From NCBI GenBank assembly GCA_046050355.1, contig JBJOPW010000016.1:1-19739 (forward strand): a stretch of DNA of 19,739 nucleotides. The letters are read 5' to 3'. The DNA comes from Candidatus Parcubacteria bacterium. Its GTDB lineage: Bacteria; Patescibacteriota; Minisyncoccia; Phycocordibacterales; UBA918. Shown in pieces: positions 216 to 12,775 of the stretch. The notes below the pieces were generated by a model. The model did no database searches and had not been told where the DNA came from. It saw only the letters and a program-made list of their open reading frames with translations. How positions within the stretch are numbered: the stretch's first letter is position 1; each line of letters starts with the position of its first letter. The position numbers were made by a program, and so were the translations under genes.

Positions 216-989
216 ATGGACGTTCCTTCAAAAAGTTGGCATATACTGACCATTACGTTGTACTCAGCAATGGTGACGTTCGTGGCCGTTATATTTTCAT
301 GGCCGGTGCCGCTGGCGTTGTTCTTTCTCTGTGGAGTCCCTCTGGTTGTTTTATTGTACGAAACCGATTTACCGCTCGGACGGCTCTTAGGTATTGTGAG
401 CATATTGTCGGTAATCGTGGTGGTGCTTGATGCCGTTGCACACACGACCGGTAGTTGGTACACCGTCGTTGGTTCGCCCTGGCAACTCCTCGGGGTGACG
501 TTTGAGTCGGTGCTGTTTGCCTTTGTGCATACCCTCTATTTCCTCGTGCTCTATGAGTTTATGTTTGACGATACCAGGGTGCGTGGCATGGCTCGTCGTG
601 GCGTGGCTGGTATGGCAGCCGTGGTGGCTTCGCTCGTGATTGCCGGTTTCTACTTATTTTCTGTTTGGCTCGTTACCTTTGCTTTTGTATGGATAATCGG
701 ACTGCTGTTTGCTCTCGTGCTGGCGCTTATGTGGCTCGCTCATCCCGGCGATTCAACCCGATTGGTTACCAAGGCGTTCTTGTTTGGTGTCATGGTATTC
801 CCGTTGTCGCTCTTATTTGAGCTAGTTGCTCAAGAAGGAGACGTACGGTTGTTTGCTTTTACCAACGAGTACCTGTTTATGGTGCCGCTGATGGGTCATC
901 TGGTGCCCGTTGAGGAACTCCTCCTCCTCGTGCTGTGGCCGACGCTCCTGGTATTTCTTTACGAGTGTTTCGTTGATGATGGCATCTAG
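216..989 (+). CDS. Polytopic membrane protein with two lycopene-cyclase-domain-like repeats
   Basis: 257 aa, very hydrophobic. Two similar halves end in D..A...GSW...LLGVTFES..F...LVLYE and E..A..G.....LMGHLVPVEELL...FLYE; the PxEE motif is characteristic of CrtYc/Yd-type domains. TGTTACAAT extended -10 at 196-204. Confidence 0.6.
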   Translation: MDVPSKSWHILTITLYSAMVTFVAVIFSWPVPLALFFLCGVPLVVLLYETDLPLGRLLGIVSILSVIVVVLDAVAHTTGSWYTVVGSPWQLLGVTFESVLFAFVHTLYFLVLYEFMFDDTRVRGMARRGVAGMAAVVASLVIAGFYLFSVWLVTFAFVWIIGLLFALVLALMWLAHPGDSTRLVTKAFLFGVMVFPLSLLFELVAQEGDVRLFAFTNEYLFMVPLMGHLVPVEELLLLVLWPTLLVFLYECFVDDGI

Positions 990-1116
990 AGTCTGTCCAA
1001 AAATCCCTCAGACTTTGTTGTACTGCATATCAGAAACACTCACCGTATGTCTATATACGGCTCTCATTTCTTCATTTGCACGCCTCGCCTGAGGGCTTTT
1101 TTGATCAGACTCATAG
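986..1116. repeat. Structured MITE/REP-like element, copy A
   Basis: Arms GAGTCTGTCCAAAAATCCCTCAGAC (989-1013) / GCCTGAGGGCTTTTTTGATCAGACTC (1087-1112). Core CTTTGTTGT...CTCACCGTATG-TCTA-TATACGGCTC...GCACGCCTCG is shared with copies B and C. Confidence 0.8.
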
Positions 1117-1130
1117 GGCGTTGTATAAAG

Positions 1131-1139
1131 TGGTATAAT
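1131..1139 (+). promoter_or_regulatory. Extended -10 promoter (TGGTATAAT), probably leaderless
   Basis: Consensus TGnTATAAT ending 7 nt before ATG 1147; no Shine-Dalgarno. Confidence 0.7.
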
Positions 1140-1146
1140 AGTTTTT

Positions 1147-4100
1147 ATGATTAATCTCCACGACGAAGCCTACCAAACCGCTTACCAGCGTCTCAATGCC
1201 AAGCAAAAAGAAGCCGTTGATACTATCGAAGGGCCGGTGATGGTGATTGCTGGTCCGGGGACGGGGAAGACCCAGATACTGACACTCCGGATTGCGAATA
1301 TCCTTCGTCAGACCCAGATGAACCCCGAGAATATTCTCGCACTCACCTTTACGAAGTCGGGAGCCAAGGCGATGCGTGAACGACTCTTTCAGTTTATTGG
1401 CAATGCTGCCTATCGTGTCAGTATAAATACCTTTCACGGTCTTGCCGAACGACTCATTCGAGAATATCCCGAAGCTTACACCAAGATTATTGGTGGCAAA
1501 GCGATCACCGCCATTGAGAAGATAGAAATCATCGAAACGATACTCAAAGCTCCGGAACTACGACTCTTACGCCCTACCGGAGCACCGGAGTTTTATGTGT
1601 CTCCACTACTCCAGATCATCAGTACCATGAAGCAGGAAAATGTGTCACCAGACGATTTGGCGACGCTGATTACTACCCAGCAACACGACCTTGAAGCCAT
1701 TCCTCGTTACCACGAAAAAGGCGCCCACAAAGGCAAAGAACGAAGTGAATATACCAAAGCGGCGGCGAGTATAGAAAAGCAGCGGGCGCTACTCGTCGTC
1801 TATCGGCAGTACGAAGCGCTCTTACGTGAACGGCAACGCTACGACTTTGATGATATGATCGTTGAGACCGTGCGGGTCCTCAAGGAAAATGAGTCGGTTC
1901 GGCTTGATCTCCAAGAGACGTACCAGTATATCTTGGCAGACGAACACCAAGACGTGAACGGTGCCCAAAACGAGATACTCGTGCAACTCACATCGTACCA
2001 CTCGAATCCCAATCTCTTTGTGGTGGGGGATGAGAAGCAGGCTATTTATCGCTTCCAAGGAGCGTCACTGGAGAACTTACTCCACTTTGAAAAACTCTAT
2101 CCCGAGACAAAGGTGATTGTCTTAACTGCCAACTACCGTTCGACCCAACCAATTCTTGATGTCAGTCATGAACTGATTAAGGTTACTGACGGACCGCTCC
2201 TGGACTACCGTATTGCGTTGACTGCTCATGCTACATCTGACACCGCACTCACACTGACAGCCTTTAGCAACGAGCAACACGAACATGTAGCCCTCATTGA
2301 ACAAATCAAAAAGTCACTTGAGGCTGGTATTGCGCCAAACGAAATTGCTGTCATCGTACGTTCGAACCGCGAGGTGGAAACTATTGCAGAGTTGCTCATA
2401 GGAGCCGGTATTACGGTTGAAGCCAGTGCTGATGCTGATGTGCTCGAACACCCACTTTTTTTGTCGGTGGTTGGTCTGCTTGAAGCGGTTCTAAATCCTG
2501 GTGATATGGCCAGGCTCACACAGGTCCTTATGGCCCCGTATTCTGGGGTAGGGGCGGCCGATATGGCTCGGATTATGGCTCATCTCTCGTACGATACCCC
2601 GCTCGCGGCACGTCTTAAGGACAGGGAGTGGCTTATGAGTATTGGTGTGGAGGATGTCAATGCTTGTACACGCCTCGTGACGCTCCTTGAGACGATACGG
2701 AGCAAGGCGCTCACTACCTCACCACACCGTCTCCTCGCTACCTTATTGACCGAAAGCGGGCTCTTGAGAGACGCTGTTGGTACTCTACCACAAGAGAGTA
2801 CGCGAGTTTTGCGTCGTCTCTACGATGAGGTAGAAGGGTTTGTCCGTAACGGTGAGGCGTTGACTCTCGCGGACGTTGTGCGACTTTTACGTCGACGGAT
2901 GGAATATCGGGTACCACTTACCGCCCCGTTTGTATCGGTAGGAAATGAAGCGGTTCAGGTGATGACCGCACACAAGTCAAAAGGGCTTGAGTTCGATACT
3001 GTTTGTATTCCACATTTGACCGAGGGGAGCTGGGGTAAGGGCAATCGAGTAGAATATTTTAAAGTACCCCTGCTAACCACCGCGAGTTTGAAGCTTGAAG
3101 CGAACGAAGATGAACGACGCCTGCTCTACGTTGCGATGACGAGAGCGAAACGAGCCTTGTTATTATCATACGCTGATCTAAGTAGTGATGGTAAAGTGCT
3201 TGTGCCAACACAATTTGTAAACACATTAGGCGGCGCTCTTCCTGTTTCGATTGCTGCCACTAGTATCACTCATGAATCATTGCCGTTGCCAAAAATTGAG
3301 TCACCAGCTATTACTACTATAAAAAGTATTCTCTTACGCACACTCACCGACCGAGGTCTCTCCGCCACCTCACTTAATAATTGTATTAAAAATCCATGGA
3401 CGTACTTATACCGTAATGTCTTTCATGTACCCGAGGTGCAGGCGCTCCCGATGCTCTATGGTACGGCTATGCACGGTGTGCTGGAGATGGCTACTACATA
3501 CCAGACGGCTCACGGAGCGCTCCCAACGCTTAGTCAACTACGCGATGTTCTTGTGCGCGAGCTCGGTCGGTTACCTTTGAGTACAGTTGAGTTCAGTGAC
3601 TTACTAGAAAAGGGCCAAGAGACTCTCGTTGTGTATCTGGAACATCTCACCACCACATTATCACCGGCTTCTAAAGCGGAATTACCAGTCAGAGTGCTCT
3701 TGCCGACACAGCACCCGCTCCTACCACTCCTGCCACTGACGGGTAAGCTTGACCGTATTGATCTTAATCCTGATGGTACAGCCCTCCGGGTAGTTGACTA
3801 CAAAACCGGTAAAGCCAAGTCGCGCAACGAAATAGAAGGTAAAACCGCTAAAGCCGATGCCTCGTATCGGCGTCAATTATCATGTTACTCGCTACTGCTG
3901 TCACTGTATGATGATGAACGATACCGAACAGATACGGGAGTACTTTCATTTATTGAGCCAGATAGTAAGGGTCGTATCCATGAAGAAGTGTATGTGAGTG
4001 GGGAAGACGAGCGGCGAGCGTTGGTGGCCGAAATTGAGACTGTAATCGATACAATCATTACTGGTGAGTTTCTCTATGATGAATCATTACTCGAGGCCAG

Positions 4101-4149
4101 TGATTATGCGTATTTGGGTAAATTGCTGTTTAGACAGTTACATGGATAA
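1147..4149 (+). CDS. UvrD/PcrA-family SF1 DNA helicase with C-terminal PD-(D/E)XK (RecB/AddA/AdnA-like) nuclease
   Basis: Helicase motifs AGPGTGKT, LTFT, LADEHQD, VVGDEKQAIYRFQGA, NYRS, MTAHKSKGLEFD, ERRLLYVAMTRAK. Nuclease motifs LSATSLN, YGTAMH, GKLDRID, VVDYKTG, QLSCY. Confidence 0.95.
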   Translation: MINLHDEAYQTAYQRLNAKQKEAVDTIEGPVMVIAGPGTGKTQILTLRIANILRQTQMNPENILALTFTKSGAKAMRERLFQFIGNAAYRVSINTFHGLAERLIREYPEAYTKIIGGKAITAIEKIEIIETILKAPELRLLRPTGAPEFYVSPLLQIISTMKQENVSPDDLATLITTQQHDLEAIPRYHEKGAHKGKERSEYTKAAASIEKQRALLVVYRQYEALLRERQRYDFDDMIVETVRVLKENESVRLDLQETYQYILADEHQDVNGAQNEILVQLTSYHSNPNLFVVGDEKQAIYRFQGASLENLLHFEKLYPETKVIVLTANYRSTQPILDVSHELIKVTDGPLLDYRIALTAHATSDTALTLTAFSNEQHEHVALIEQIKKSLEAGIAPNEIAVIVRSNREVETIAELLIGAGITVEASADADVLEHPLFLSVVGLLEAVLNPGDMARLTQVLMAPYSGVGAADMARIMAHLSYDTPLAARLKDREWLMSIGVEDVNACTRLVTLLETIRSKALTTSPHRLLATLLTESGLLRDAVGTLPQESTRVLRRLYDEVEGFVRNGEALTLADVVRLLRRRMEYRVPLTAPFVSVGNEAVQVMTAHKSKGLEFDTVCIPHLTEGSWGKGNRVEYFKVPLLTTASLKLEANEDERRLLYVAMTRAKRALLLSYADLSSDGKVLVPTQFVNTLGGALPVSIAATSITHESLPLPKIESPAITTIKSILLRTLTDRGLSATSLNNCIKNPWTYLYRNVFHVPEVQALPMLYGTAMHGVLEMATTYQTAHGALPTLSQLRDVLVRELGRLPLSTVEFSDLLEKGQETLVVYLEHLTTTLSPASKAELPVRVLLPTQHPLLPLLPLTGKLDRIDLNPDGTALRVVDYKTGKAKSRNEIEGKTAKADASYRRQLSCYSLLLSLYDDERYRTDTGVLSFIEPDSKGRIHEEVYVSGEDERRALVAEIETVIDTIITGEFLYDESLLEASDYAYLGKLLFRQLHG

Positions 4150-4191
4150 TGATCACAAAAGCACCCCAAAGGGTGCTTTTGTGATCATTAT
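4146..4191. terminator. Bidirectional intrinsic terminator between convergent genes
   Basis: Perfect 21-bp stem ATAATGATCACAAAAGCACCC / GGGTGCTTTTGTGATCATTAT with a CAAA loop. Confidence 0.9.
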
Positions 4192-4203
4192 GATTGTGTC
4201 TTC

Positions 4204-4971
4204 TTATGATCCTGTTTCAGTTTTAGTATTACCACCTTCAAGCTGAGCAATCAGACGTTCAATGATTTGTTTGACCACGGGATATGGCTGAGCGCCATTA
4301 ATGACCGCTTTTTGGTCTCCGACAGTGACAATTGAATAGGGTGTACCCTGAGCCCCTGCTTTCACACCATCTTTGAGACTGTCTTCTACAGCCGTGGTGT
4401 GACGACCACTAGACAAACAGGTGTTAAATTCAGTTCGGGAGACACCGGCTTTTTCTGCAAACTCTGGCAATTTGCTCATGTTGGTTGGTTCATTCACTTC
4501 TCGCTCTCCAAAGACAAGATCAGAGAATGTCCAGAAGGCTTCGTCGCCACCGAGCTCTCCTACGCAGTAAGCCGCTTCAGAAATACGAGGAGCATTTGGG
4601 TGGAGTTGTGCCAATGGGAATTGGCGGTATACCCAAGCCACTTTACCAGTCACGCCATAATCTTCCATGATGAGTTTCATCGTATCGTGGAAGTTTTTAC
4701 AAAATGGGCAGTCATAATCTGAATACTCAACAATCACAATCGGTGCGTTTGGATTACCACGAATGAAATCTTTTTCGGTGACGGGTGAGAGCTCAATAGC
4801 TTTTTCTTCCTCAGGAGTAGCGGTAGGTGTCGTAGCCGGAGCAATTTTGCTACCACTAAAATAAATAGCTATGGCAATAAACGCAAAACCAACAACAATA
4901 GCAAATGGGATCCCCATATTTGATGCGGGCTTCTGCATCGGGACTTGATTCTGATTTGTCTCTTCAGGCAT
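4204..4971 (-). CDS. DsbA-family thiol-disulfide oxidoreductase, membrane anchored
   Basis: N-terminal TM segment, then RGNPNAPIVIVEYSDYDCPFC (CxxC), YRQFPL..LHPNA and the GTP cis-Pro loop. ATG 4971 preferred over TTG 4977. Confidence 0.92.
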   Translation of the reverse strand: MPEETNQNQVPMQKPASNMGIPFAIVVGFAFIAIAIYFSGSKIAPATTPTATPEEEKAIELSPVTEKDFIRGNPNAPIVIVEYSDYDCPFCKNFHDTMKLIMEDYGVTGKVAWVYRQFPLAQLHPNAPRISEAAYCVGELGGDEAFWTFSDLVFGEREVNEPTNMSKLPEFAEKAGVSRTEFNTCLSSGRHTTAVEDSLKDGVKAGAQGTPYSIVTVGDQKAVINGAQPYPVVKQIIERLIAQLEGGNTKTETGS

Positions 4972-4999
4972 ACACAAAACTAATTACGAATATGGCAGT

Positions 5000-5041
5000 A
5001 GTATATCACGGCCGTAGACAAAGTTAATGCCGTGGTATACT
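5000..5041. promoter_or_regulatory. Divergent extended -10 promoters for dsbA-like and uppP
   Basis: TGATATACT on the minus strand (5008-5000) and TGGTATACT on the plus strand (5033-5041). Confidence 0.6.
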
Positions 5042-5057
5042 CAGAGGTACACAACCT

Positions 5058-5867
5058 ATGACATTAATTGAATCTATAGTCCTTGGACTGTTGCAGGGAA
5101 TTACTGAGTTTTTACCGATTTCGTCTTCTGGACACCTAGTGCTGGCACATGATTTTCTTGGTGTCATTGGCGAAGGATCATTAGCATTTGATGCCGTGCT
5201 TCATTTAGCAACCGCTACGGCCGTCCTTATCTATTTTAAAAAAGACTTCTGGATACTCTTTCAAGCATTGTTACGAAAGTTGGGTAAATTGCCGGTAGAA
5301 AATCGAGACGTTACTTTGGCATACGCGCTTCTTATTGGTACCATTCCAGCAGTAATTGTTGGTGTTTTATTGGAAGACATTATGGCGACGCTATTCCGGA
5401 ACCCCCTCCTCGTGGCTGGATCATTAATTGCTGGGTCACTATTGTTTATTTATGCTGAATGGCGCTATTACAACAACGTGCCACAAAATGATATGTCACT
5501 AAGTAAGGCTGTGAAGATCGGTCTCTTCCAATGTTTGGCGTTTGTACCGGGTTTTTCTCGCTCTGGGGCCACTATTGCCGGTGGTATGCTCATGGGTCTG
5601 TCCCGGAGTGAAGCCGCTCGTTTTGGGTTCCTTTTGGCGGTGCCACTCCTGATGGGGGCAGGTGGCAAGAAGCTCCTTGAGCTGATTGCGGTCGGTGGCG
5701 ACTTTGCTTGGGGAGTCATTTTTCTCGGTGCTATTACTGCTTTTGTGGTCGGACTGGCGGCCATTCACTTTATGCTGTCCTTTGTGCGGAAGTATTCGTT
5801 GTGGCCGTTTGTGTGGTATCGGCTGTTTTTGGCCCTTCTTGTCATATACATCTTCGCCCTCAGCTAA
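5058..5867 (+). CDS. uppP: Undecaprenyl-diphosphate phosphatase (BacA)
   Basis: Signature motifs QGITEFLPISSSGHL and QCLAFVPGFSRSGATI; 269 aa polytopic membrane protein. Confidence 0.97.
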   Translation: MTLIESIVLGLLQGITEFLPISSSGHLVLAHDFLGVIGEGSLAFDAVLHLATATAVLIYFKKDFWILFQALLRKLGKLPVENRDVTLAYALLIGTIPAVIVGVLLEDIMATLFRNPLLVAGSLIAGSLLFIYAEWRYYNNVPQNDMSLSKAVKIGLFQCLAFVPGFSRSGATIAGGMLMGLSRSEAARFGFLLAVPLLMGAGGKKLLELIAVGGDFAWGVIFLGAITAFVVGLAAIHFMLSFVRKYSLWPFVWYRLFLALLVIYIFALS

Positions 5868-5989
5868 GATCGGTGAAAATACCTCATTAGCTTTGTTGTG
5901 CTTCACAAAACAACATTCAACGTACAACAAGTACGCCTCATATTGTTTTGCTCGCACGCCTCGCTTCTGAGGCATTTTGACCAATCTTA
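5865..5989. repeat. Structured MITE/REP-like element, copy B
   Basis: Arms TAAGATCGGTGAAAATACCTCATTAGC (5865-5891) / GCTTCTGAGGCATTTTGACCAATCTTA (5963-5989). Core CTTTGTTGTGC...TTCAACGTAC-AACAA-GTACGCCTC...GCACGCCTCG. Confidence 0.8.
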
Positions 5990-6019
5990 TTAGGTGGCTA
6001 AAATTATCAACGTACTTTG

Positions 6020-6065
6020 ATCTATTAACAAAACCGCGCACGGTTTCGTGGCGGTTCAAATAGAT
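6020..6065 (-). terminator. Intrinsic terminator for minus-strand transcript
   Basis: Minus strand AACCGC-CACG-AAAC-CGTG-C-GCGGTT followed by TTGTT, enclosed by ATCTATT/AATAGAT. Confidence 0.6.
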
Positions 6066-6164
6066 GGTCGACGGCATTGCGGGATCAATCACAATGTCTT
6101 TTGATGTATGATCTACACATCGACCGGTAGTTCAATATATTGATATGTACTTAGTTACAAAGTC

Positions 6165-6407
6165 CTAGGTTGTAGGCATGCACTCGATGTCGTAGACGTT
6201 TTTCAGTCCATGGTGCACTGAACCACCTATGCAGGTGAGTAGAGTGCCAGGAGCAACATCGTCACGAATCCAGTACAGGTACAATCCGCCATCAGGCATC
6301 CTGCCCTCCAACAGAAACCACTTCCATTTAGGATTACTCGGTTCGATGGAGCCTAGCACAATCAAGGTTGTAGGGCTGTGCCGCTCGTGTAGTGCTGGAG
6401 CAATCAT
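6165..6407 (-). CDS. Hypothetical 80-aa protein (orphan)
   Basis: Perfect AAGGAGGT Shine-Dalgarno (6420-6413) 5 nt before ATG 6407; open to TAG 6165; downstream terminator. The longer 117-aa call overlaps the upstream gene and is less likely. Confidence 0.65.
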   Translation of the reverse strand: MIAPALHERHSPTTLIVLGSIEPSNPKWKWFLLEGRMPDGGLYLYWIRDDVAPGTLLTCIGGSVHHGLKNVYDIECMPTT

Positions 6408-6469
6408 CTGACACCTCCTTGTCATGGGGCAACATCGCCCGTCAGATTTATATATTAAAACATTCTTTT

Positions 6470-7045
6470 TTAAAAAAGTAAAGAGTGGGTCATGGCGGCA
6501 TCTTCTTTGATCATCCAAGTGGAGATATCAAGGGGGATTTCGCGCTTGCGACTGCCGTCTTTGAACTTTACATGGCCATGGGCCATGGCGTAGTCAAACA
6601 CCTTTTTAGTGACACGCACGTCTTGTTCGCAGTACTTTTTGATTTCATCAATTTTGCCTTCTTTCCACCAGCGGACGGCTTGGAGTCCGTGGGCGGATTT
6701 TTTGGCACCGACCGTGGCTTCGGCGACACTATCGAGCCGCAGCCGGCGGCCAAGTGACTGACGAATACTCTCAAGGAGGTCGATACTCTTGATGTGAGAC
6801 AGGTCACCAGGGTAGTACTTATTGAGGAGGGGAATATCGAAGTGGTTACTGTTGTAGCCGACCAGCGCATCAGCCTGCTCAATAATTGGCCAGGCTTTCG
6901 CAAGCTCATCTACGGTGACGGTGAGGTACGTATCAGTACCGCTATCATAAAAGGTCGCCACCGAGATATCGAGCGCGGCTGGGTCACTTGAACCCACTTC
7001 CTCAAAGATATTTTGCGTCTCCAGGTCAAAAATTACGTACCGCAT
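6470..7045 (-). CDS. RNase H-like / DEDD-type 3'-5' exonuclease (YprB/RNase_H_2-like)
   Basis: Exo I VIFDLET, Exo II VGYNSNHFDIPLL, Exo III YCEQDV. Start MRYVIFD at ATG 7045 with TGCTATACT 12 nt upstream. Confidence 0.88.
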   Translation of the reverse strand: MRYVIFDLETQNIFEEVGSSDPAALDISVATFYDSGTDTYLTVTVDELAKAWPIIEQADALVGYNSNHFDIPLLNKYYPGDLSHIKSIDLLESIRQSLGRRLRLDSVAEATVGAKKSAHGLQAVRWWKEGKIDEIKKYCEQDVRVTKKVFDYAMAHGHVKFKDGSRKREIPLDISTWMIKEDAAMTHSLLF

Positions 7046-7068
7046 AGATAGAGCGACAGTATAGCACA

Positions 7069-7097
7069 AACGGACGACCGAGTGAGGATCGTCCGTT
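7069..7097 (-). terminator. Hairpin after hisS, probable terminator
   Basis: AACGGACGA (7069-7077) / TCGTCCGTT (7089-7097); short T tract on the minus strand. Confidence 0.55.
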
Positions 7098-7102
7098 ACG
7101 TA

Positions 7103-8371
7103 TTATTCAGCATCGGTGATGTGGTTGACGAGTTCATCAAGGGTGCCTTTGATCTCAGTCTCTTCGATGAGATTCTTGAGGGTATAGGTACCTGAGGTAA
7201 GTTCGTCTTCGCCGACGACAATGATGTATTCAACGAGGCGTTCGGCGGCGTCACTAATCTTTTTGCCAAGCTTACGGGTACCAATATCGGTCGCAACAGA
7301 AATTTCTTTTTGGCGAATGGCCATGGCGATTTTTTGCGCGGCAAGATTGTGACTCGCTTCCATCGGTATGATCATTACGGTTGGAGCGGTAATACTTGCG
7401 GTCATAAGGTCGTGGGTCTCGAGGAAGTCGCGCATGGTGACGTCACCCATACCAAAGCCAATGCCAGAGATTGGGTCGGCACTAAACATACCGGTGAGGT
7501 TGTCGTAGCGACCACCACCGAGCATCGAGCGGTTGTTCTCGCCAGAGACATCAAATATCTCAAAGATAGTCCCGGTGTAGTAGTTAAAACCACGAGCGAT
7601 AGAGCGATCGATTTTGACATTCTCGATACCAAGTTCACGAAGTCCATCAACTACTCGGTTGGTGTCATTGGTATCGCCACCAGAGACGAGGGTATACACA
7701 GATTCGACAATAGTCTCGTCACTAACAATCTCTTTGAGTGCCGATTTGTATTCATCGGCAGAGATCTTATGAAAACGATCATTGAGTCTCGTGATAGCAT
7801 CTTGCTTTTCAATATCCTCTATTCCGTATGCGCTATATTTTTGGCGCATTTCGGCACGGTCATTGATACGAATTTCAAATAGGTTCGCTTCGGCGCCAAA
7901 ATTTACGATGAGTTGGTACGCGAGCGCTATAATCTCGACATCCGCGGTGTAATCATCCGCACCAAAGATATCGCAGTTAAGCTGCCAGTGTTCGCGCAGG
8001 CGACCTCGTTGTGGGCGTTCGTAGCGGAAGAGGTTTGGAATACTGTACCAACGGACCGGGAGCGAGAGCTCACGACGACGACCGGCGACCATGCGGGCGA
8101 CGGTTGGGGTCATCTCAGGACGAAGGGTGACTTCACGGTCACCACGATCGATGAAGGTGTAGGTCTGTTCGTTGACCATTTCTTCGTTCTCGGCCCCTTT
8201 GCTCTTGTAGAGGATGGCGGGTTCAAGGACCGAGGCGTCGTAGCGCTCAAAGCCAAAGCTTTCGGCGGTAGCGGCCCAAACATCAAAAATATAGCGCTGT
8301 ACCGCCATATCTTCTGGATAAAAGTCACGGACGCCTTTGTAAGGGTCGGTCGATAGATAATTGTCTGCCAT
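7103..8371 (-). CDS. hisS: Histidine--tRNA ligase
   Basis: KGVRDFYP, TLRPEMTPTVAR, FRYERPQRGRLREHWQ, RGFNYYTG, GGGRYDNL, GIGFGMG, and a C-terminal anticodon domain (IIVVGEDE). ATG 8371 preferred. Confidence 0.97.
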   Translation of the reverse strand: MADNYLSTDPYKGVRDFYPEDMAVQRYIFDVWAATAESFGFERYDASVLEPAILYKSKGAENEEMVNEQTYTFIDRGDREVTLRPEMTPTVARMVAGRRRELSLPVRWYSIPNLFRYERPQRGRLREHWQLNCDIFGADDYTADVEIIALAYQLIVNFGAEANLFEIRINDRAEMRQKYSAYGIEDIEKQDAITRLNDRFHKISADEYKSALKEIVSDETIVESVYTLVSGGDTNDTNRVVDGLRELGIENVKIDRSIARGFNYYTGTIFEIFDVSGENNRSMLGGGRYDNLTGMFSADPISGIGFGMGDVTMRDFLETHDLMTASITAPTVMIIPMEASHNLAAQKIAMAIRQKEISVATDIGTRKLGKKISDAAERLVEYIIVVGEDELTSGTYTLKNLIEETEIKGTLDELVNHITDAE

Positions 8372-8378
8372 GCGCTTG

Positions 8379-8407
8379 ATTCTAGGGGAAAATTGTGGTG
8401 CTGGCAA
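8379..8407 (-). promoter_or_regulatory. Sigma70-type promoter of hisS (TTGCCA-17-TAGAAT), probably leaderless
   Basis: -35 TTGCCA at 8407-8402, 17-nt spacer, -10 TAGAAT at 8384-8379, then 7 nt to ATG. Confidence 0.65.
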
Positions 8408-8408
8408 G

Positions 8409-8496
8409 TTCAGCCCGTTAGAAGTTGCAAAAAAGTACTATTTACTGCAGGAATATGTTCTGGCAACTTTATTAGGGCGACTTCTAACGGGCTAAA
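8409..8496. mobile_element. MITE-like element with terminal inverted repeats
   Basis: TTCAGCCCGTTAGAAGTTGC (8409-8428) versus the reverse complement of 8477-8496, TTTAGCCCGTTAGAAGTCGC: 18/20 match; non-coding interior. Confidence 0.7.
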
Positions 8497-9060
8497 TTAG
8501 TCGGGAATAACAGGAGAGTCACCTAAAGATTGCATCCGCGCATCCATAGCGGTTTGAATGAGTGACTGGAGCCCACGGGGGTCAGGCAACGCTGGCGAGG
8601 TGAAGTTGCTCTCGGCGGCACTCGCGGTCTGCGCCCGAATAGTGCCGAAGTTAAGCAGGGTAGGGATGATACCAGAAATGGTCACCTTGATATCCTGCAT
8701 GCGCTCGAGGCGGAAGTTACTGACTTTGCGATTGAAAAAGCTGATTTGTTCGATCACTATAATCCGTCGGTCTGTAATCACCCAGAGGTCGAGGTAGTAG
8801 TGGGTCCAAGACACCGTAGCGGCCATCACTGAGAGGAGAAGCCAGGTTGAAAGGAGGAAAATAATCACCGCCATATTATCGGCAAACAGATTAGCGATAT
8901 CGAGATTGAAAGGGAGGTTTAAGAGGAGGATACAACCAATGACGGGCAGTAACCCCATCATGACAATTGAGAGAAGTTCAATCACAATCACAAACCAATG
9001 TTTTCGTACAGTTCGTAGTACTTGCTCATCAGGTTCGAGTTCAATTTTGTCGTACAACAT
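8497..9060 (-). CDS. Membrane protein with bacterial PH (bPH_2/YdbS-like) domain
   Basis: LEPDEQVLRTVRKHW, two TM helices, then YYLDLWVITDRRII..EQ..FFNRKVS..RLERMQDI...LLNFGTIRAQTA. ATG 9060 lies 1 nt after the upstream stop. Confidence 0.85.
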   Translation of the reverse strand: MLYDKIELEPDEQVLRTVRKHWFVIVIELLSIVMMGLLPVIGCILLLNLPFNLDIANLFADNMAVIIFLLSTWLLLSVMAATVSWTHYYLDLWVITDRRIIVIEQISFFNRKVSNFRLERMQDIKVTISGIIPTLLNFGTIRAQTASAAESNFTSPALPDPRGLQSLIQTAMDARMQSLGDSPVIPD

Positions 9061-9061
9061 A

Positions 9062-9262
9062 TTATAAGAAAGCAATAGCGGCCATGACAATAAGGAGCGG
9101 AAGCGAGAAGAGGGCAAAGGCAGTGTATGTCTGCAGAGTCACCGCACTTGATACGGAATAACTCTGCCAGTGATAAAAGAGAACGGCGGTAAAAGTAGCG
9201 TAGACAATAGCGATAAGATAAAACCCGAGCTGCAGGAGGGGGGTGATAGAGAGTGCTTCCAT
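9062..9262 (-). CDS. Small two-TM hypothetical membrane protein
   Basis: 66 aa, two hydrophobic helices flanking YHWQSYS; fits tightly between prmC and the PH gene as an operon member. Confidence 0.75.
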   Translation of the reverse strand: MEALSITPLLQLGFYLIAIVYATFTAVLFYHWQSYSVSSAVTLQTYTAFALFSLPLLIVMAAIAFL

Positions 9263-9266
9263 ACGT

Positions 9267-10052
9267 TTATTCTGCCACAAGTGGCGTAAGGATGCTATAG
9301 CGGTATGTGTCGTATTGGTCGCAGTGGTGCGTGACGCTGAACTGGTGGGCTATAGCGAGTGCGGCAATCGCTTCGCATTGGAATGGTTCGTGCTCAATCC
9401 AGAGTTGTCCCTGGGGCGCGAGCGAAGCTCGCGCCCCAGCCATAATGCGCTCAATGATTTCCATACCATCTGCACCACCAAAGAGGCCGAGGTGCGGTTC
9501 GTGGAGAGCAACACTCTCCTCGACGGTATCTGCAGCTTTATCAATATAGGGAGGATTCGTCAGAATAAAATCAAAGGTTCCATCGATATTAGCAAACAAA
9601 TCACTCTCGACAGTAGGATATTTAATACTACTATATATAGTAGTATTTTCGGTGAGATTTTTTTTGATGGTAGGGAGGTGAGTAGGGTCAATCTCGGCAA
9701 AGGTGACCGAAGCCCCGGGAATGGCTTTGGCGACTGCCACCCCAATCGCACCACTACCGGCGCAGAGGTCGAGTACCCGAATCATCCCGAAGGGCGGTCC
9801 TTCGCGAAGGACCGCCCTTCGGGAGAAGTTTTTAATTATAGTGATAGCTTTTTCGACCCAGTACTCGGTCTCCGGGCGGGGGATGAGAGGATGGGAATCG
9901 AGATGGATAGTAGCATCGAGGAAGGGAATCGAGCCGATGATATACGCGAGTGGTTCACCGGCTTCGAGCCGGGCACAGTCGGCGAAAAAAGCCTCGCTTT
10001 TTTCGCCGTTATATTTCTCCCGCAGAAGCCACTCGATTTCTTGATTTTTCAT
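9267..10052 (-). CDS. prmC: Release factor glutamine methyltransferase (HemK)
   Basis: GEPLAYIIG, LIPRPETE, VLDLCAGSGAIG, LTNPPYI, HEPHLGLFGGADG. Start MKNQEIEWLLREKY at ATG 10052 with TGTTACTAT upstream. Confidence 0.95.
   Translation of the reverse strand: MKNQEIEWLLREKYNGEKSEAFFADCARLEAGEPLAYIIGSIPFLDATIHLDSHPLIPRPETEYWVEKAITIIKNFSRRAVLREGPPFGMIRVLDLCAGSGAIGVAVAKAIPGASVTFAEIDPTHLPTIKKNLTENTTIYSSIKYPTVESDLFANIDGTFDFILTNPPYIDKAADTVEESVALHEPHLGLFGGADGMEIIERIMAGARASLAPQGQLWIEHEPFQCEAIAALAIAHQFSVTHHCDQYDTYRYSILTPLVAE
9785..9824. repeat. Perfect 40-bp palindrome (REP-like doublet) inside prmC
   Basis: TCCCGAAGGGCGGTCCTTCG|CGAAGGACCGCCCTTCGGGA is its own reverse complement. Confidence 0.95.
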
Positions 10053-10114
10053 ATAATTTGTTGTATAGTAACAAATAGAAGCTGAATCTTCAACAACCAA
10101 CATGCGAGGAAAAA

Positions 10115-10852
10115 ATGTCTGCAATCGACAACCTGAAAGTTCGTATCGAAGCTGAACAAAATGCGCTGGACGAAGAACTGAAAGCCATGCTTGTCCAAGC
10201 AATGTTGCGGTGGAAACAAATCCAGCAAGAACTGCGTGGAGTGGTCGGCATGGATTATCTACCTCCGGCGCCAGATGCAGAACTCTTCATTAACACGCTC
10301 CGAACGATCATGTCGCTTGTCGATGGACGTGAGTGGGATGTGTTGAAGTCGTTGGGTTTTGATGGAGTCACTGCTAAGGCATGGCTCGAATTCGAAGTTG
10401 AGTCCGCTCCCAAGATTAATGGGAGGGAGATTCTCGAACTCATCTTTGGTCGGGCTTCAGCTCTCTTTGGTGATGTCGGGGTCTATGATTGGCTCCAAAG
10501 CAAATCACAAGACGTCGACGAAATCATTCGAGATGTTGAGGCGAGGGTGGCTGAAGCGTCTGGTCTTTCTCCCAAGGAACGTATAACTCTAAAAACCCGA
10601 CTTCGTGCAATTGAAGGCTTGTCTTCACGGATCAGGTATCAGCTGAGTCACAGCTTTCCCTACCTGGGTGATGTTTTGCTTGAAACTGAGGCTGGGGTGT
10701 TGCGTGAGCCAAACGTTGGTCGAAAATCCCTCAACGAGCTGAAAGAGTTTTTGCGTAGAAATGGTTTCCGACTCTCTGCTGATGGTGAGAAACGAAAAGC
10801 TGATCCGGAATTCGAAGAATTCCTAGACTGGAGAGCTCAACAAGGAGCTTGA
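10115..10852 (+). CDS. Hypothetical protein with C-terminal RNA polymerase alpha-CTD-like (HhH) domain
   Basis: LSSRIRYQL...YLGDVLLETEAGVLREPNVGRKSLNELKEFL aligns by eye to alpha-CTD LTVRSANCL...[31 protein letters not shown]. N-terminal part is unlike alpha-NTD. GAGG RBS and own terminator. Confidence 0.75.
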   Translation: MSAIDNLKVRIEAEQNALDEELKAMLVQAMLRWKQIQQELRGVVGMDYLPPAPDAELFINTLRTIMSLVDGREWDVLKSLGFDGVTAKAWLEFEVESAPKINGREILELIFGRASALFGDVGVYDWLQSKSQDVDEIIRDVEARVAEASGLSPKERITLKTRLRAIEGLSSRIRYQLSHSFPYLGDVLLETEAGVLREPNVGRKSLNELKEFLRRNGFRLSADGEKRKADPEFEEFLDWRAQQGA

Positions 10853-10868
10853 GTCAACAATCGCAAGA

Positions 10869-10898
10869 AAAGGGCGGTGCTTCGGCGCCGCCCTTTCT
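10869..10898 (+). terminator. Intrinsic terminator with C(UUCG)G tetraloop
   Basis: AAAGGGCGGTGC-TTCG-GCGCCGCCCTTT-CT. Confidence 0.85.
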
Positions 10899-10934
10899 AC
10901 GTCTTTAAAGAGTAAATCTGCTATACTGCTACTT

Positions 10935-11672
10935 ATGTCAGACACACCAATGTTAGAAATTAAAGACCTCGTGAAGGTTTATGGCAGTGGCGCAAAGGCG
11001 AAGCGAGCGGTTGATGGTATCTCACTTTCAATTCCGCGAGGAGCGTTTTTTGGACTCTTGGGCCCTAATGGTGCCGGGAAGTCGACCACCATCCACTGTA
11101 TTACCGGGATTGCCCAGCCAACCTCTGGCTCTATCACTATCGATGGTACTGACGTTGTGCAGGATTATAAGCGTGCTCGTACGAAGGTTGGCCTCTCACC
11201 ACAGGAGTTTAATGTTGATATCTTTTCGACTCCCGAGCAACTTATGGACTACATGGGTGGGTACTACGGTATTCCGCACGATGAACGCGTGAAGCGGGTG
11301 CATGAACTCATTAAGCGCTTTGATCTCGAAGCCCACCGTGATGTGAAGTTTCAAAAGCTCTCGGGTGGTCTCAAGCGCCGGGCCATGCTTGGCCGCGCAC
11401 TTGTGCATATGCCCGGACTCCTCATCCTCGATGAGCCAACTGCTGGAGTGGACGTTGAGCAGCGTCGTGACCTTTGGGCCTACCTCAAGGAGCTTAATGA
11501 TGCTGGTACGACTATCATTCTCACCTCCCACTACCTCGAGGAAATCCAGCAGCTTTGCAATCACATTGCGGTCATAAATCACGGGACAATTATTTGGAAT
11601 GGTACCAAGTCAGACTTTATGGCTGGAGGGAAGTCGGTTGAAGATAAATACTTAGAACTCCTCAAAAATTAA
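10935..11672 (+). CDS. ABC-2 type exporter ATP-binding protein (YadG-like)
   Basis: Walker A GPNGAGKST, signature LSGGLKRR, Walker B LLILDEPT, H-loop TSHY. TGCTATACT 7 nt upstream of ATG. Confidence 0.95.
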   Translation: MSDTPMLEIKDLVKVYGSGAKAKRAVDGISLSIPRGAFFGLLGPNGAGKSTTIHCITGIAQPTSGSITIDGTDVVQDYKRARTKVGLSPQEFNVDIFSTPEQLMDYMGGYYGIPHDERVKRVHELIKRFDLEAHRDVKFQKLSGGLKRRAMLGRALVHMPGLLILDEPTAGVDVEQRRDLWAYLKELNDAGTTIILTSHYLEEIQQLCNHIAVINHGTIIWNGTKSDFMAGGKSVEDKYLELLKN

Positions 11673-11679
11673 TCAACAT

Positions 11680-12591
11680 ATGAAAGAAAATTATCAAAAG
11701 CAACCGGATAAAGCTTTGTTGAATGAAATGCGAGGAGTGGGAGAGACTGCGACTGAGGCTTATCGTGTATACGATGAAGAGCAGGCTTCGAACCACAACA
11801 AAGCAGTTCGGCAACAGAGGTTTATCAGGACAAATTGGATAGGGTTATATACGATGGTCCGCCGCGAAGTAAAACGGACAATGCGAGTGGTAGTGCAGAC
11901 CCTGATTGCACCGGCTGTTTCAGCGGCACTCTACATTTTCATTTTTGGTACGGTGATTGGAAGTAAGATTGATGATTTTGCTGGTGTTCCGTATATATCA
12001 TTTGTATTCCCGGGTGTGCTTATGCTCTCGATTATTAATGCGTCGTTCTCGAGCGCCTCGTCCGCCCTCTACTTTATGCGCTTTACGCGCGGGATTGAAG
12101 AGATTCTTATCACCCCATTTTCGTACGTGGAGATGCTCATTGGATTTGTGGGGAGCGCGGTGGCGCGAGCGGTGATGGTGGCAGTTCTCATTCTCCTCGT
12201 TGGGCTGGCGTTTGGGGCAGTGAGCCTCGTCTCACCATTAGGATTCCTCTTGTATATTAGTGCAATTGCGGCAATATTTGCGATGCTTGGAATAGTAGTG
12301 GCGCTCTGGGCTGAGAGCTTTGAGCAGCTCCAGGTCCTTAATACCTTTGTCATTACGCCACTGACATACCTTGGGGGTATCTTTTATTCTATTACGATGC
12401 TGCCTCCGCTCGCTGCTACCATTACCCGCTACAACCCCTTCTTCTACTTTGCCGACGGGGTGCGCGGCAGCATGATCGGGTACCACGAAGCGAATACCAC
12501 GGTTGGATTTTTGGTGATTGGGGGACTGGTAGTCGGATTAGGAGTAATCGTGACTACTATGTTCCGCCGCGGTTGGAAAATCCGCTCATAG
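11680..12591 (+). CDS. ABC-2 type exporter permease (YadH-like)
   Basis: QTLIAPAVSAALYIFIFG, YISFVFPG, FVITPLTYLGGIFYSITMLP, NPFFYFADG; about six TM helices; directly follows the ATPase. Confidence 0.93.
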   Translation: MKENYQKQPDKALLNEMRGVGETATEAYRVYDEEQASNHNKAVRQQRFIRTNWIGLYTMVRREVKRTMRVVVQTLIAPAVSAALYIFIFGTVIGSKIDDFAGVPYISFVFPGVLMLSIINASFSSASSALYFMRFTRGIEEILITPFSYVEMLIGFVGSAVARAVMVAVLILLVGLAFGAVSLVSPLGFLLYISAIAAIFAMLGIVVALWAESFEQLQVLNTFVITPLTYLGGIFYSITMLPPLAATITRYNPFFYFADGVRGSMIGYHEANTTVGFLVIGGLVVGLGVIVTTMFRRGWKIRS

Positions 12592-12711
12592 GCCACAGTC
12601 CGGGAAACTACCTTGTTGTCTTCGCTAGAAAAAAGCTCACAGTACAAATCAGTACAGCTTGCTTTTTTCTAGCTCGACGTCTCGTATTTTCCTCCGCCTG
12701 AGTCCTATGAG
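12585..12711. repeat. Structured MITE/REP-like element, copy C
   Basis: Outer CTCATAGG/CCTATGAG and GGAAACTAC/GTATTTTCC. Core CCTTGTTGTC-TTC-GCTAGAAAAAAGC-TCACAGTAC-AAATCA-GTACAGCTT-GCTTTTTTCTAGC-TC-GACGTCTCG. Confidence 0.75.
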
Positions 12712-12775
12712 TAGTTGATTCAGTCCACAGTGATTACAAGCCCATAAGGACTCTGGCTGGTATGCTATAGGAAGT

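Follow-up and report, generated by a model that had tools for sequence, protein, structure and literature searches.

A palindromic repeat family at the ends of genes in a Candidatus Parcubacteria genome and its relatives, with pairing on the antisense strand

Copies of the element in the window

The window analysed here is the whole 19,739-nt contig 16 of a Candidatus Parcubacteria genome, called G000 in the following, which comprises 939,894 bases in 17 contigs. It carries copies of a palindromic element, typically about 129 bp long, which lie at the ends of ordinary genes, namely those of a hypothetical protein, of UppP/BacA and of an ABC-2 permease. The stems of this element are selected for pairing on the strand antisense to the host gene, and its family is uncatalogued; no Rfam family matches it. 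In an earlier reading made from the sequence without database searches (the sequence-only reading), three long imperfect hairpins had been described, and these are real: their RNAfold z-scores range from -6.6 to -6.9 on the plus strand and from -6.8 to -11.4 on the minus strand, and 0 of 200 shuffles folded as well. The conserved motifs, CTTTGTTGT or CCTTGTTGT on the left and ACGCCTCG or ACGTCTCG on the right, are located where that reading had placed them, and the left arms do overlap the stop codons of plus-strand genes. Its statement that there are three copies in one orientation is true of those that it named, but a fourth copy, on the minus strand, had been overlooked.

A strict motif search of G000 gave 12 stretches and a looser one 32 overlapping matches, of which 27 (the three named window copies included) were judged by eye to be true copies and were then aligned. 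The consensus structure, four helices with 47 pairs, combines the RNAalifold result with a gapless outer stem, and the covariance model R1 was built from the 27-copy alignment and this structure. With R1, 47 copies are found in G000, at E values between 3e-26 and 1.5e-7; every one is full length and measures 127-132 bp (47/47). They are spread over 16 of the 17 contigs downstream of housekeeping genes, so that the many genome-wide copies expected from the window alone do exist. The features of the window are as follows, the limits of the copies being those set by R1.

984-1114, plus strand: element copy 1 (R1 88.1 bits, E 9.8e-18; fold -41.6 kcal/mol on the plus and -51.5 kcal/mol on the minus strand)
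987-989, plus strand: TAG enclosed by the basal stem of copy 1, the stop codon of the open reading frame (ORF) 216-989, a hypothetical protein
1013-1021 and 1080-1087, plus strand: sequence motifs of copy 1, CTTTGTTGT and ACGCCTCG
1040-1064, plus strand: apex hairpin of copy 1, with TCA, CCGTATG/TATACGG and CTC
5862-5990, plus strand: element copy 2 (R1 122.9 bits, E 3.2e-26; fold -42.0 kcal/mol on the plus and -62.9 kcal/mol on the minus strand)
5865-5867, plus strand: TAA enclosed by the basal stem of copy 2, the stop codon of the uppP/bacA gene 5058-5867
5891-5899, 5917-5940 and 5956-5963, plus strand: CTTTGTTGT, apex and ACGCCTCG of copy 2, from the sequence
11703-11832, minus strand: element copy 4 (R1 63.6 bits, E 9.2e-12)
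12582-12712, plus strand: element copy 3 (R1 87.7 bits, E 1.2e-17; fold -46.5 kcal/mol on the plus and -54.9 kcal/mol on the minus strand)
12589-12591, plus strand: TAG enclosed, with the four preceding coding bases, by the stem of copy 3, the stop codon of the ABC-2 permease ORF 11680-12591
12611-12619 and 12677-12684, plus strand: sequence motifs of copy 3, CCTTGTTGT and ACGTCTCG

Copy 2 is the top-scoring R1 copy in G000, and the ORF in front of it is identified as UppP/BacA by Pfam BacA (2.8e-80). The comparison with Rfam 15 at gathering score gave 0 matches in the window, and for 20 copies searched with E up to 1 there was nothing beyond two sub-threshold hits to the mir-1255 precursor, both at locus L008, which are read as chance. 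In literature searches no paper describing the element was found.

Anchoring in stop codons and pairing on the antisense strand

The element is placed precisely at stop codons. Model positions -5 to +20 hold the end of an ORF of 80 aa or more, read on the element strand, in 38 of 47 G000 copies; this end is exactly at model position 4 in 15 cases and at positions 2-5 in 25, and the nine unanchored copies include inverted ones. The stops at the 38 anchored copies are TAA 22, TAG 16 and TGA 0, against 468, 261 and 123, respectively, for the long ORFs of the genome. In G007, the closest relative, which consists of two contigs, was taken whole and holds 63 R1 copies, 53 copies are anchored likewise (TAA 31, TAG 20, TGA 2). 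Since 15 gene-anchored G007 copies run against the sign of the local GC skew, the orientation follows the gene and not the replication arm, and this answers the tabulation that the sequence-only reading had proposed. The best copies elsewhere are anchored in 18/22 cases in the genus, 9/11 in other families and 5/7 in other classes, with the stops TAA 25, TAG 7 and TGA 0.

Of the 38 anchored G000 copies, 29 precede a co-directional gene, which starts at -10 to 294 nt (within 50 nt for 11 copies), 8 face a convergent gene and one has no next gene; over the whole genome, 655 neighbours are co-directional and 284 convergent. Behind several copies there is a canonical terminator. Because the element stands between the stop codon and the terminator or next gene, it should be co-transcribed with its host gene.

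Some single copies show further details of context. At G000:C6:48714-48842 the outer stem extends into the last three codons of the upstream gene; relative to G007 this gene end has four synonymous differences in nine positions, which pair with the right arm, and the protein end LKI is unchanged, a pattern that would fit selection for a stem enclosing the stop codon. The copy at G000:C6:39894-40024 lies 134 nt upstream of the RNase III gene (40158-40550) on the same strand, which may be chance. A TTGAYC hexamer in the right arm of window copies 1 and 2 is followed, at a distance usual for promoters, by a -10-like hexamer in the flanking DNA (1102-1137, 5977-6004), and TTGACC-16-TAAAAT at 5977-6004 was called in a promoter scan; genes downstream may receive -35 boxes from the element.

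The pairing of the stems can be followed within and between genomes. For 33 G000 copies aligned to R1, 80.6% of the pair cells are standard, compared with 52.3 +/- 0.9% for shuffled and 33-43% for slid partners, and two-sided changes occur in 42 of the 47 pairs, counts which lean towards the model because the alignments were fitted to R1, and which are set against a shuffle control that ignores relatedness. With the same procedure, 43 copies from other genomes, none of them used for R1, are 86.2% paired (53.4 +/- 0.8% shuffled, 31-42% slid), with two-sided changes in 43/47 pairs. At orthologous loci, 14 pairs of G000 and G007 copies were compared, twelve at 80-93% identity and two at 71-74%: 153 of 647 base pairs are changed, and 52 of these are double changes from Watson-Crick to Watson-Crick. 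The copies within G000, on the other hand, have a median identity of 57% and a maximum of 75%, so the view that structure is selected, and that the likeness does not come from recent copying, has held up.

The tolerated mismatches are strongly asymmetric between the strands. On the gene-sense strand the nonstandard cells comprise 122 A.C/C.A against 56 G.T/T.G, of which 30 belong to one invariant T-G pair (26 outside it), and 113 T.C/C.T against 11 G.A/A.G; read from the antisense strand, the same mismatches are G.U wobbles and tandem G.A pairs. Among the 14 orthologous pairs, the one-sided changes on the sense strand go to A.C in 33 cases and to G.T in 10, with 18 versus 6 for pyrimidine and 15 versus 4 for purine changes, and since the bias is present in both, avoidance of G alone is no explanation. 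When folded as RNA, the antisense strand is the more stable in 47/47 G000 copies (mean -51.1 vs -35.8 kcal/mol for sense) and in 59/61 G007 copies; with DNA energy parameters this is so in 46/47 G000 copies. The sense strand of the elements is G-poor (G = 16.5% of 14,540 bases), and its C/G ratio of 1.58 compares with 1.34 at four-fold sites and with about equal C and G in the 3' flanks of element-free genes. Mutation bias is therefore an unlikely source of the asymmetry: the C/G of flanks and four-fold sites is lower than that of the element, and both transition classes are biased. As for coding potential, no frame is generally open, and at most 14/109 copies are open in any antisense frame. 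The folded strand is thus, as had been suspected from the C-A mismatches of three copies, antisense to the host genes; once a copy is placed, compensatory changes preserve its pairing at the locus, and those intermediates are tolerated that can still pair on the antisense strand.

Double changes could also arise with no structural selection at all. Template switching at imperfect palindromes is an established process, and in quasi-palindromes it copies one arm onto the other during replication, which would yield double changes without selection. We hold this explanation of the family to be very improbable: it should erase the asymmetric internal loops, yet these are kept in other families, in other classes and in the matches in named genomes, and it leaves unexplained the gene orientation as well as the bias of both transition classes, in which A.C exceeds G.T by 3 to 1.

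It is quite improbable, too, that the element works as a sense-strand mRNA structure, that is to say, as a long intrinsic terminator or a 3'-end stabiliser like the E. coli REP sequences. The location in the transcribed 3' region, the run of 3-6 T behind the inner stem in many copies and the stability of the sense hairpins (z about -6.7) agree with such a role, as does uppP of genome G047, where a plain terminator hairpin takes the place that the element has in other genomes. For a sense RNA, however, the mismatch pattern is reversed, A.C being tolerated and G.U not. Moreover, a simple terminator scan called only the small apex hairpins and not the elements, canonical terminators follow some copies, and one empty/filled pair of sites has the same terminator with and without the element.

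The antisense fold itself suggests another function. The element may be a domesticated antisense-RNA trap, in which a transcript entering the gene from its 3' end would fold to a near-perfect 60-bp helix, at which RNA polymerase would stop or which RNase III would cut, the mismatched mRNA version being harmless. The stronger antisense fold in all 47 copies, the maintained pairing of that strand at orthologous loci, the orientation tied to the gene and not to replication, and the position on the stop codon itself, which copies from other families and classes share, are all in its favour. So is the fact that the coding DNA around some copies is less conserved than the copies themselves. In G000, which is 99.97% complete, a search for the Rho RNA-binding domain gave no match, and RNase III is present; for the former reason a Rho utilisation site on the C-rich sense strand was considered and dropped. 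On the other hand, the source of an antisense transcript is not obvious, since 29 of 38 copies precede a co-directional gene, 11 of them within 50 nt, and the patchy spread is odd for a needed function, with 2 to at least 77 copies within the genus and 106 of 150 genomes of the order without a match. The conserved unpaired motifs would be left unexplained, and the Rho result is for G000, while the family also occurs in Smithella-type genomes. A look for RNA reads over window 900-10800 gave no run that carries it; the three runs listed contain next to none of its sequence words. Taken together, we regard the trap as possible but unlikely. Distinctly unlikely is a wider form of it, a domesticated, direction-sensitive RNA device that, in genomes with no Rho match, would stand in for Rho-dependent antisense silencing and would have spread between phyla as a mobile insulator. 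The proposal for how it would work, with the two strands tuned apart by selection and an antisense helix with tandem G.A motifs at which the transcript would be terminated or cut by RNase III, is to be held with the same strong reserve.

Distribution, turnover and the search for a mobilising partner

The element is found well beyond G000. All 24 sampled genomes of genus relatives match R1, with 2 to at least 77 copies each (the best 84 candidates per genome were scored); in the order, where the best 22 per genome were scored, 44 of 150 other genomes match, in 38 of 131 genera including that of G000; and in the phylum 7 of 150 other genomes match, all from other classes. The covariance-model scan that the sequence-only reading had recommended thus finds further copies in G000 itself, in the genus, in the order and in other classes. 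In addition, a scan for the core pattern in one genome per species gave at least 122 stretches, and R1 yields 79 matches among the 80 loci listed, most of them full length. Judged by title, the pattern matches listed include Paceibacteria, Kaiserbacteria, Saccharibacteria, Campbellbacteria and Zambryskibacteria and, beyond the candidate phyla radiation (CPR), many Smithella, Smithellaceae and Syntrophaceae as well as two Omnitrophota contigs; the family spans several phyla. There was no blastn match in a plasmid collection. A viral collection gave two pattern hits, neither confirmed by R1, so that carriage by phages was set aside as a candidate.

The Smithella-type copies form a group of their own, far more alike among themselves than the CPR copies. 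An ORF of at least 40 codons, TGA included, ends at the left end in 18/36 of them; 14 are anchored in the sense orientation only and 4 in the reverse only. Identical flanking 3-mers, mostly T-N-A, were found in 15/37 by script and in more by eye.

Turnover at single loci can be read from a comparison of G000 with G007. The two are syntenic, the 1.2-kb flanks being 70-93% identical, and for 43 of the 47 copies in G000 the flanks are colinear in G007. At 28 of these 43 sites G007 has an R1 match too (27 in the same orientation), and at the other 15 it has none. Empty orthologous sites had been named as something to look for, and six clean ones exist in G007, corresponding to C1:71038, C2:64492, C6:25825, C6:34654, C6:48714 and window 11703; where a gene ends at a clean empty site, presence or absence of the element does not shift its stop codon. 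Among the shared sites there are two classes: 12 are 80-93% identical, at or above the value for the flanking, mostly coding DNA (75-89%), and 15 are 56-74% identical, like random family members (median 57%); one further site has no identity value. There is also a G000 copy whose site is empty in G007 and which shares 82% identity with a copy located elsewhere in G007; a match of this kind between different sites suggests movement or conversion. Across the genus, the element stands behind uppP at 9 of 30 orthologous loci, G000 included, once inverted. The window copies themselves are examples: at the syntenic place of copy 1, G007 has no element and 2.2 kb of other DNA instead, the counterpart of copy 2 at the same site is just 65% identical, and the syntenic place of copy 3 has no R1 match. 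Copies are thus gained, lost and replaced over evolutionary time.

Copy 4 is inverted relative to the flanking plus-strand genes and lies between the ABC ATPase gene, which ends at 11672, and the conserved start of the ABC-2 permease. It is open in the frame of ORF 11680-12591, in which the Pfam ABC2_membrane match begins at residue 56 of the long ORF, and its site is empty in G007, with a 13-nt gap between the aligned flanks. In the stretch 11680-11845, conserved N-terminal permease codons (NWIGLYT) stand just behind the copy, with only synonymous differences from G007. Translation of the permease may now begin within copy 4, which would supply the start codon and add as many as about 50 residues at the N terminus. 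At G000:C6:34654-34782, the weakest copy lies inverted inside a 1166-aa ORF on the other strand, whose frame is kept open, and this site too is empty in G007.

A partner that could mobilise the element was sought among the transposase-like genes of G000, and the only ones found are HUH Y1 enzymes, with four Y1_Tnp matches. One is an IS200 transposase of 149 aa, above the NCBIfam cut-off, with its own end hairpins. There are also three paralogous HUH proteins of 211-236 aa, at G000:C2:111287-111997 (L161), C1:5784-6458 (L162) and C1:69071-69706 (L163), whose best match, below threshold, is the REP-associated tyrosine transposase (RAYT). Two of these RAYT-like genes have perfect hairpins of their own on both sides, which do not resemble the element (best R1 score there 26 bits) and are arranged in the style of a REP-RAYT module; at the third, the single flank read holds just a terminator-like hairpin. 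Y1-type genes occur in 90 of the 150 other genomes of the order, and a Y1_Tnp match is present in 28/44 element genomes and 62/106 element-free ones, related genomes not being independent; six genomes with 12-21 or more element matches (G148, G081, G149, G179, G181 and G160) have no Y1 match. RAYT and IS200 were therefore rejected as partners, because the IS200 copy and two of the RAYT-like genes have their own hairpins and because Y1 presence does not go with the element.

The same results bear on the idea that the element is a folded single-stranded DNA site for a strand-specific enzyme, in the style of attC and integrase or of REP/REPIN and RAYT, with the bottom strand as substrate. An imperfect palindrome after an ORF, with fixed orientation, conserved structure and a better bottom-strand fold (preferred under DNA parameters too), follows the logic of attC, and HUH Y1 enzymes act on DNA hairpins. 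The hairpins specific to two of the RAYT-like genes and to the IS200 copy, and the missing link between Y1 genes and the element, stand against it; furthermore, the orientation ignores the direction of replication, and the copies are scattered among housekeeping genes and not in cassette arrays. In view of this, the single-stranded DNA site is improbable.

Several other observations were made during this search. A perfect hairpin with an 18-bp stem at window 9785-9824, inside overlapping long ORFs, is a near copy of those flanking L161 (G000:C2, about 111.2-112.0 kb), its central three bases being swapped in a compensatory manner; hairpins of this type are a second, REP-like repeat family in G000. 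At G000:C11:987-2036 there is a reverse transcriptase of 349 aa, whose best match, the group II intron reverse transcriptase/maturase, scores 156 bits where the cut-off is 300. Near the Smithella copy L327, at a distance of 175 nt, there is a weak DDE fragment, but its ORF runs through the element and it is read as chance.

The sequence-only reading had listed three candidate natures without ranking them, a domesticated non-autonomous element, a protein-binding site in single-stranded DNA and an antisense structured RNA. The evidence favours the first, and the other two keep the lower probabilities given above. With confidence a little above even, we take the element to be an old non-autonomous palindromic repeat, like a miniature inverted-repeat transposable element (MITE) and of the ERIC/REP kind, which is under selection for bottom-strand pairing. 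The left end of a copy supplies or overlaps the TAA or TAG stop of the preceding gene. The folded bottom strand, as DNA or RNA, would be needed by whatever maintains the element, and copies would survive mainly where the mRNA carries the weaker, G-poor hairpin; survival in the gene-following orientation would then be explained because that orientation harms the host gene least.

A number of points weigh against the reading as an old MITE-like repeat. First of all, no target-site duplication is found in the CPR copies, where the 3-mers on the two sides agree in 8/108 (control 3.6 +/- 1.7), and in 52/108 the palindrome simply extends past the ends. No terminal inverted repeat is conserved across lineages; what is conserved is the internal loops and the apex, which a transposase reading terminal repeats does not need. 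In G000 there is no DDE_3, DDE_Tnp_1, rve or TnpB-type family match, element ends are absent from the flanks of all 12 DDE_Tnp_1 loci examined in five Smithella-type genomes, and, as mentioned above, Y1 transposases do not go with the element. Since no pair of copies in G000 exceeds 75% identity, there is no sign of recent movement there. Decay at the locus would be expected of a purely selfish element, and it is not seen in these copies. Finally, the gene calls on which the anchoring counts are based come from our own longest-ORF scripts and not from a trained gene finder.

Small palindromic repeats are commonly treated as genome litter or as typing markers. Here, a core conserved from CPR bacteria to Smithella-type deltaproteobacteria, together with the stop-codon placement and the selection on the antisense fold, makes it testable whether such a repeat is selfish, tolerated or useful. 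A benefit of the bottom-strand fold to the host would point to a new way of policing transcription in tiny genomes that are without the usual factors. With a covariance model of the family, many false small ORFs and wrongly called gene starts would disappear from the annotation of these genomes.

Comparison with known repeat systems

According to the review by Delihas (PMC2229807), bacterial palindromic repeats are about 100-200 bp long, form a long hairpin, are co-transcribed and have orientation-dependent effects. Among them, ERIC/IRU (enterobacterial repetitive intergenic consensus) comes close to the element, being a 127-bp imperfect palindrome that forms an intergenic long hairpin, is co-transcribed, acts in an orientation-dependent manner and has TA termini. 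Unlike ERIC/IRU, the element conserves its internal loops and apex, its stems are free to vary and it occurs in several phyla; the TA duplication of ERIC is not shown here. When copy 2 was compared with 5,426 E. coli genomes, there was no blastn match with E up to 0.01, no ERIC reference sequence being used directly. It is said that De Gregorio et al. in 2005 found ERIC copies on or next to stop codons to favour one orientation.

REP, BIME and REPIN sequences resemble the element in that they are palindromic, lie mostly downstream of genes between co-directional or convergent ORFs, and are long-lived and vertically inherited; the TAG stop of a neighbouring ORF can come from the termini of REP-type repeats, some copies of which are located within genes (Di Nocera and colleagues, PMC3733652). 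The element differs from them as a single 129-nt hairpin, whereas REP units are 20-40 nt long and carry a GTAG or CGTC tag. In contrast to a REP/REPIN-RAYT pair, the RAYT-like genes of G000 are flanked by other hairpins, and Y1 genes do not co-occur with the element.

The attC site of integrons is an imperfect palindrome of similar length directly after an ORF, with fixed orientation and conserved structure, of which the bottom strand is folded and functional. The element is like attC in its length, its place after the ORF, its orientation, its variable sequence and its better-folding bottom strand. Unlike attC, it has no cassette array and no integrase context, no search aimed at an integrase having been made, and its copies come after conserved housekeeping genes whose synteny is kept; the R box motifs of attC were not seen in two element copies read by eye.

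The two inverted in-frame copies, at window 11703-11832 and at G000:C6:34654-34782, resemble the Rickettsia palindromic elements (PMC2229807), but such in-frame copies are exceptional for the element. Of the features of bacterial MITEs in Table 1 of that review, the element has the small size, the long stem-loop and the filled and empty sites. A terminal 6-mer inverted repeat with at most 1 mismatch is present in 107/108 copies, and its sequence is not conserved between lineages; no autonomous insertion sequence with the same ends and no accompanying transposase was found in G000 or at the 12 Smithella-type DDE loci. Compared with the reviewed palindromic repeats, the element conserves its loops and apex and not its ends, the loops and apex hold across phyla although the stems vary freely, and it is the pairing of the unexpressed strand that is selected.

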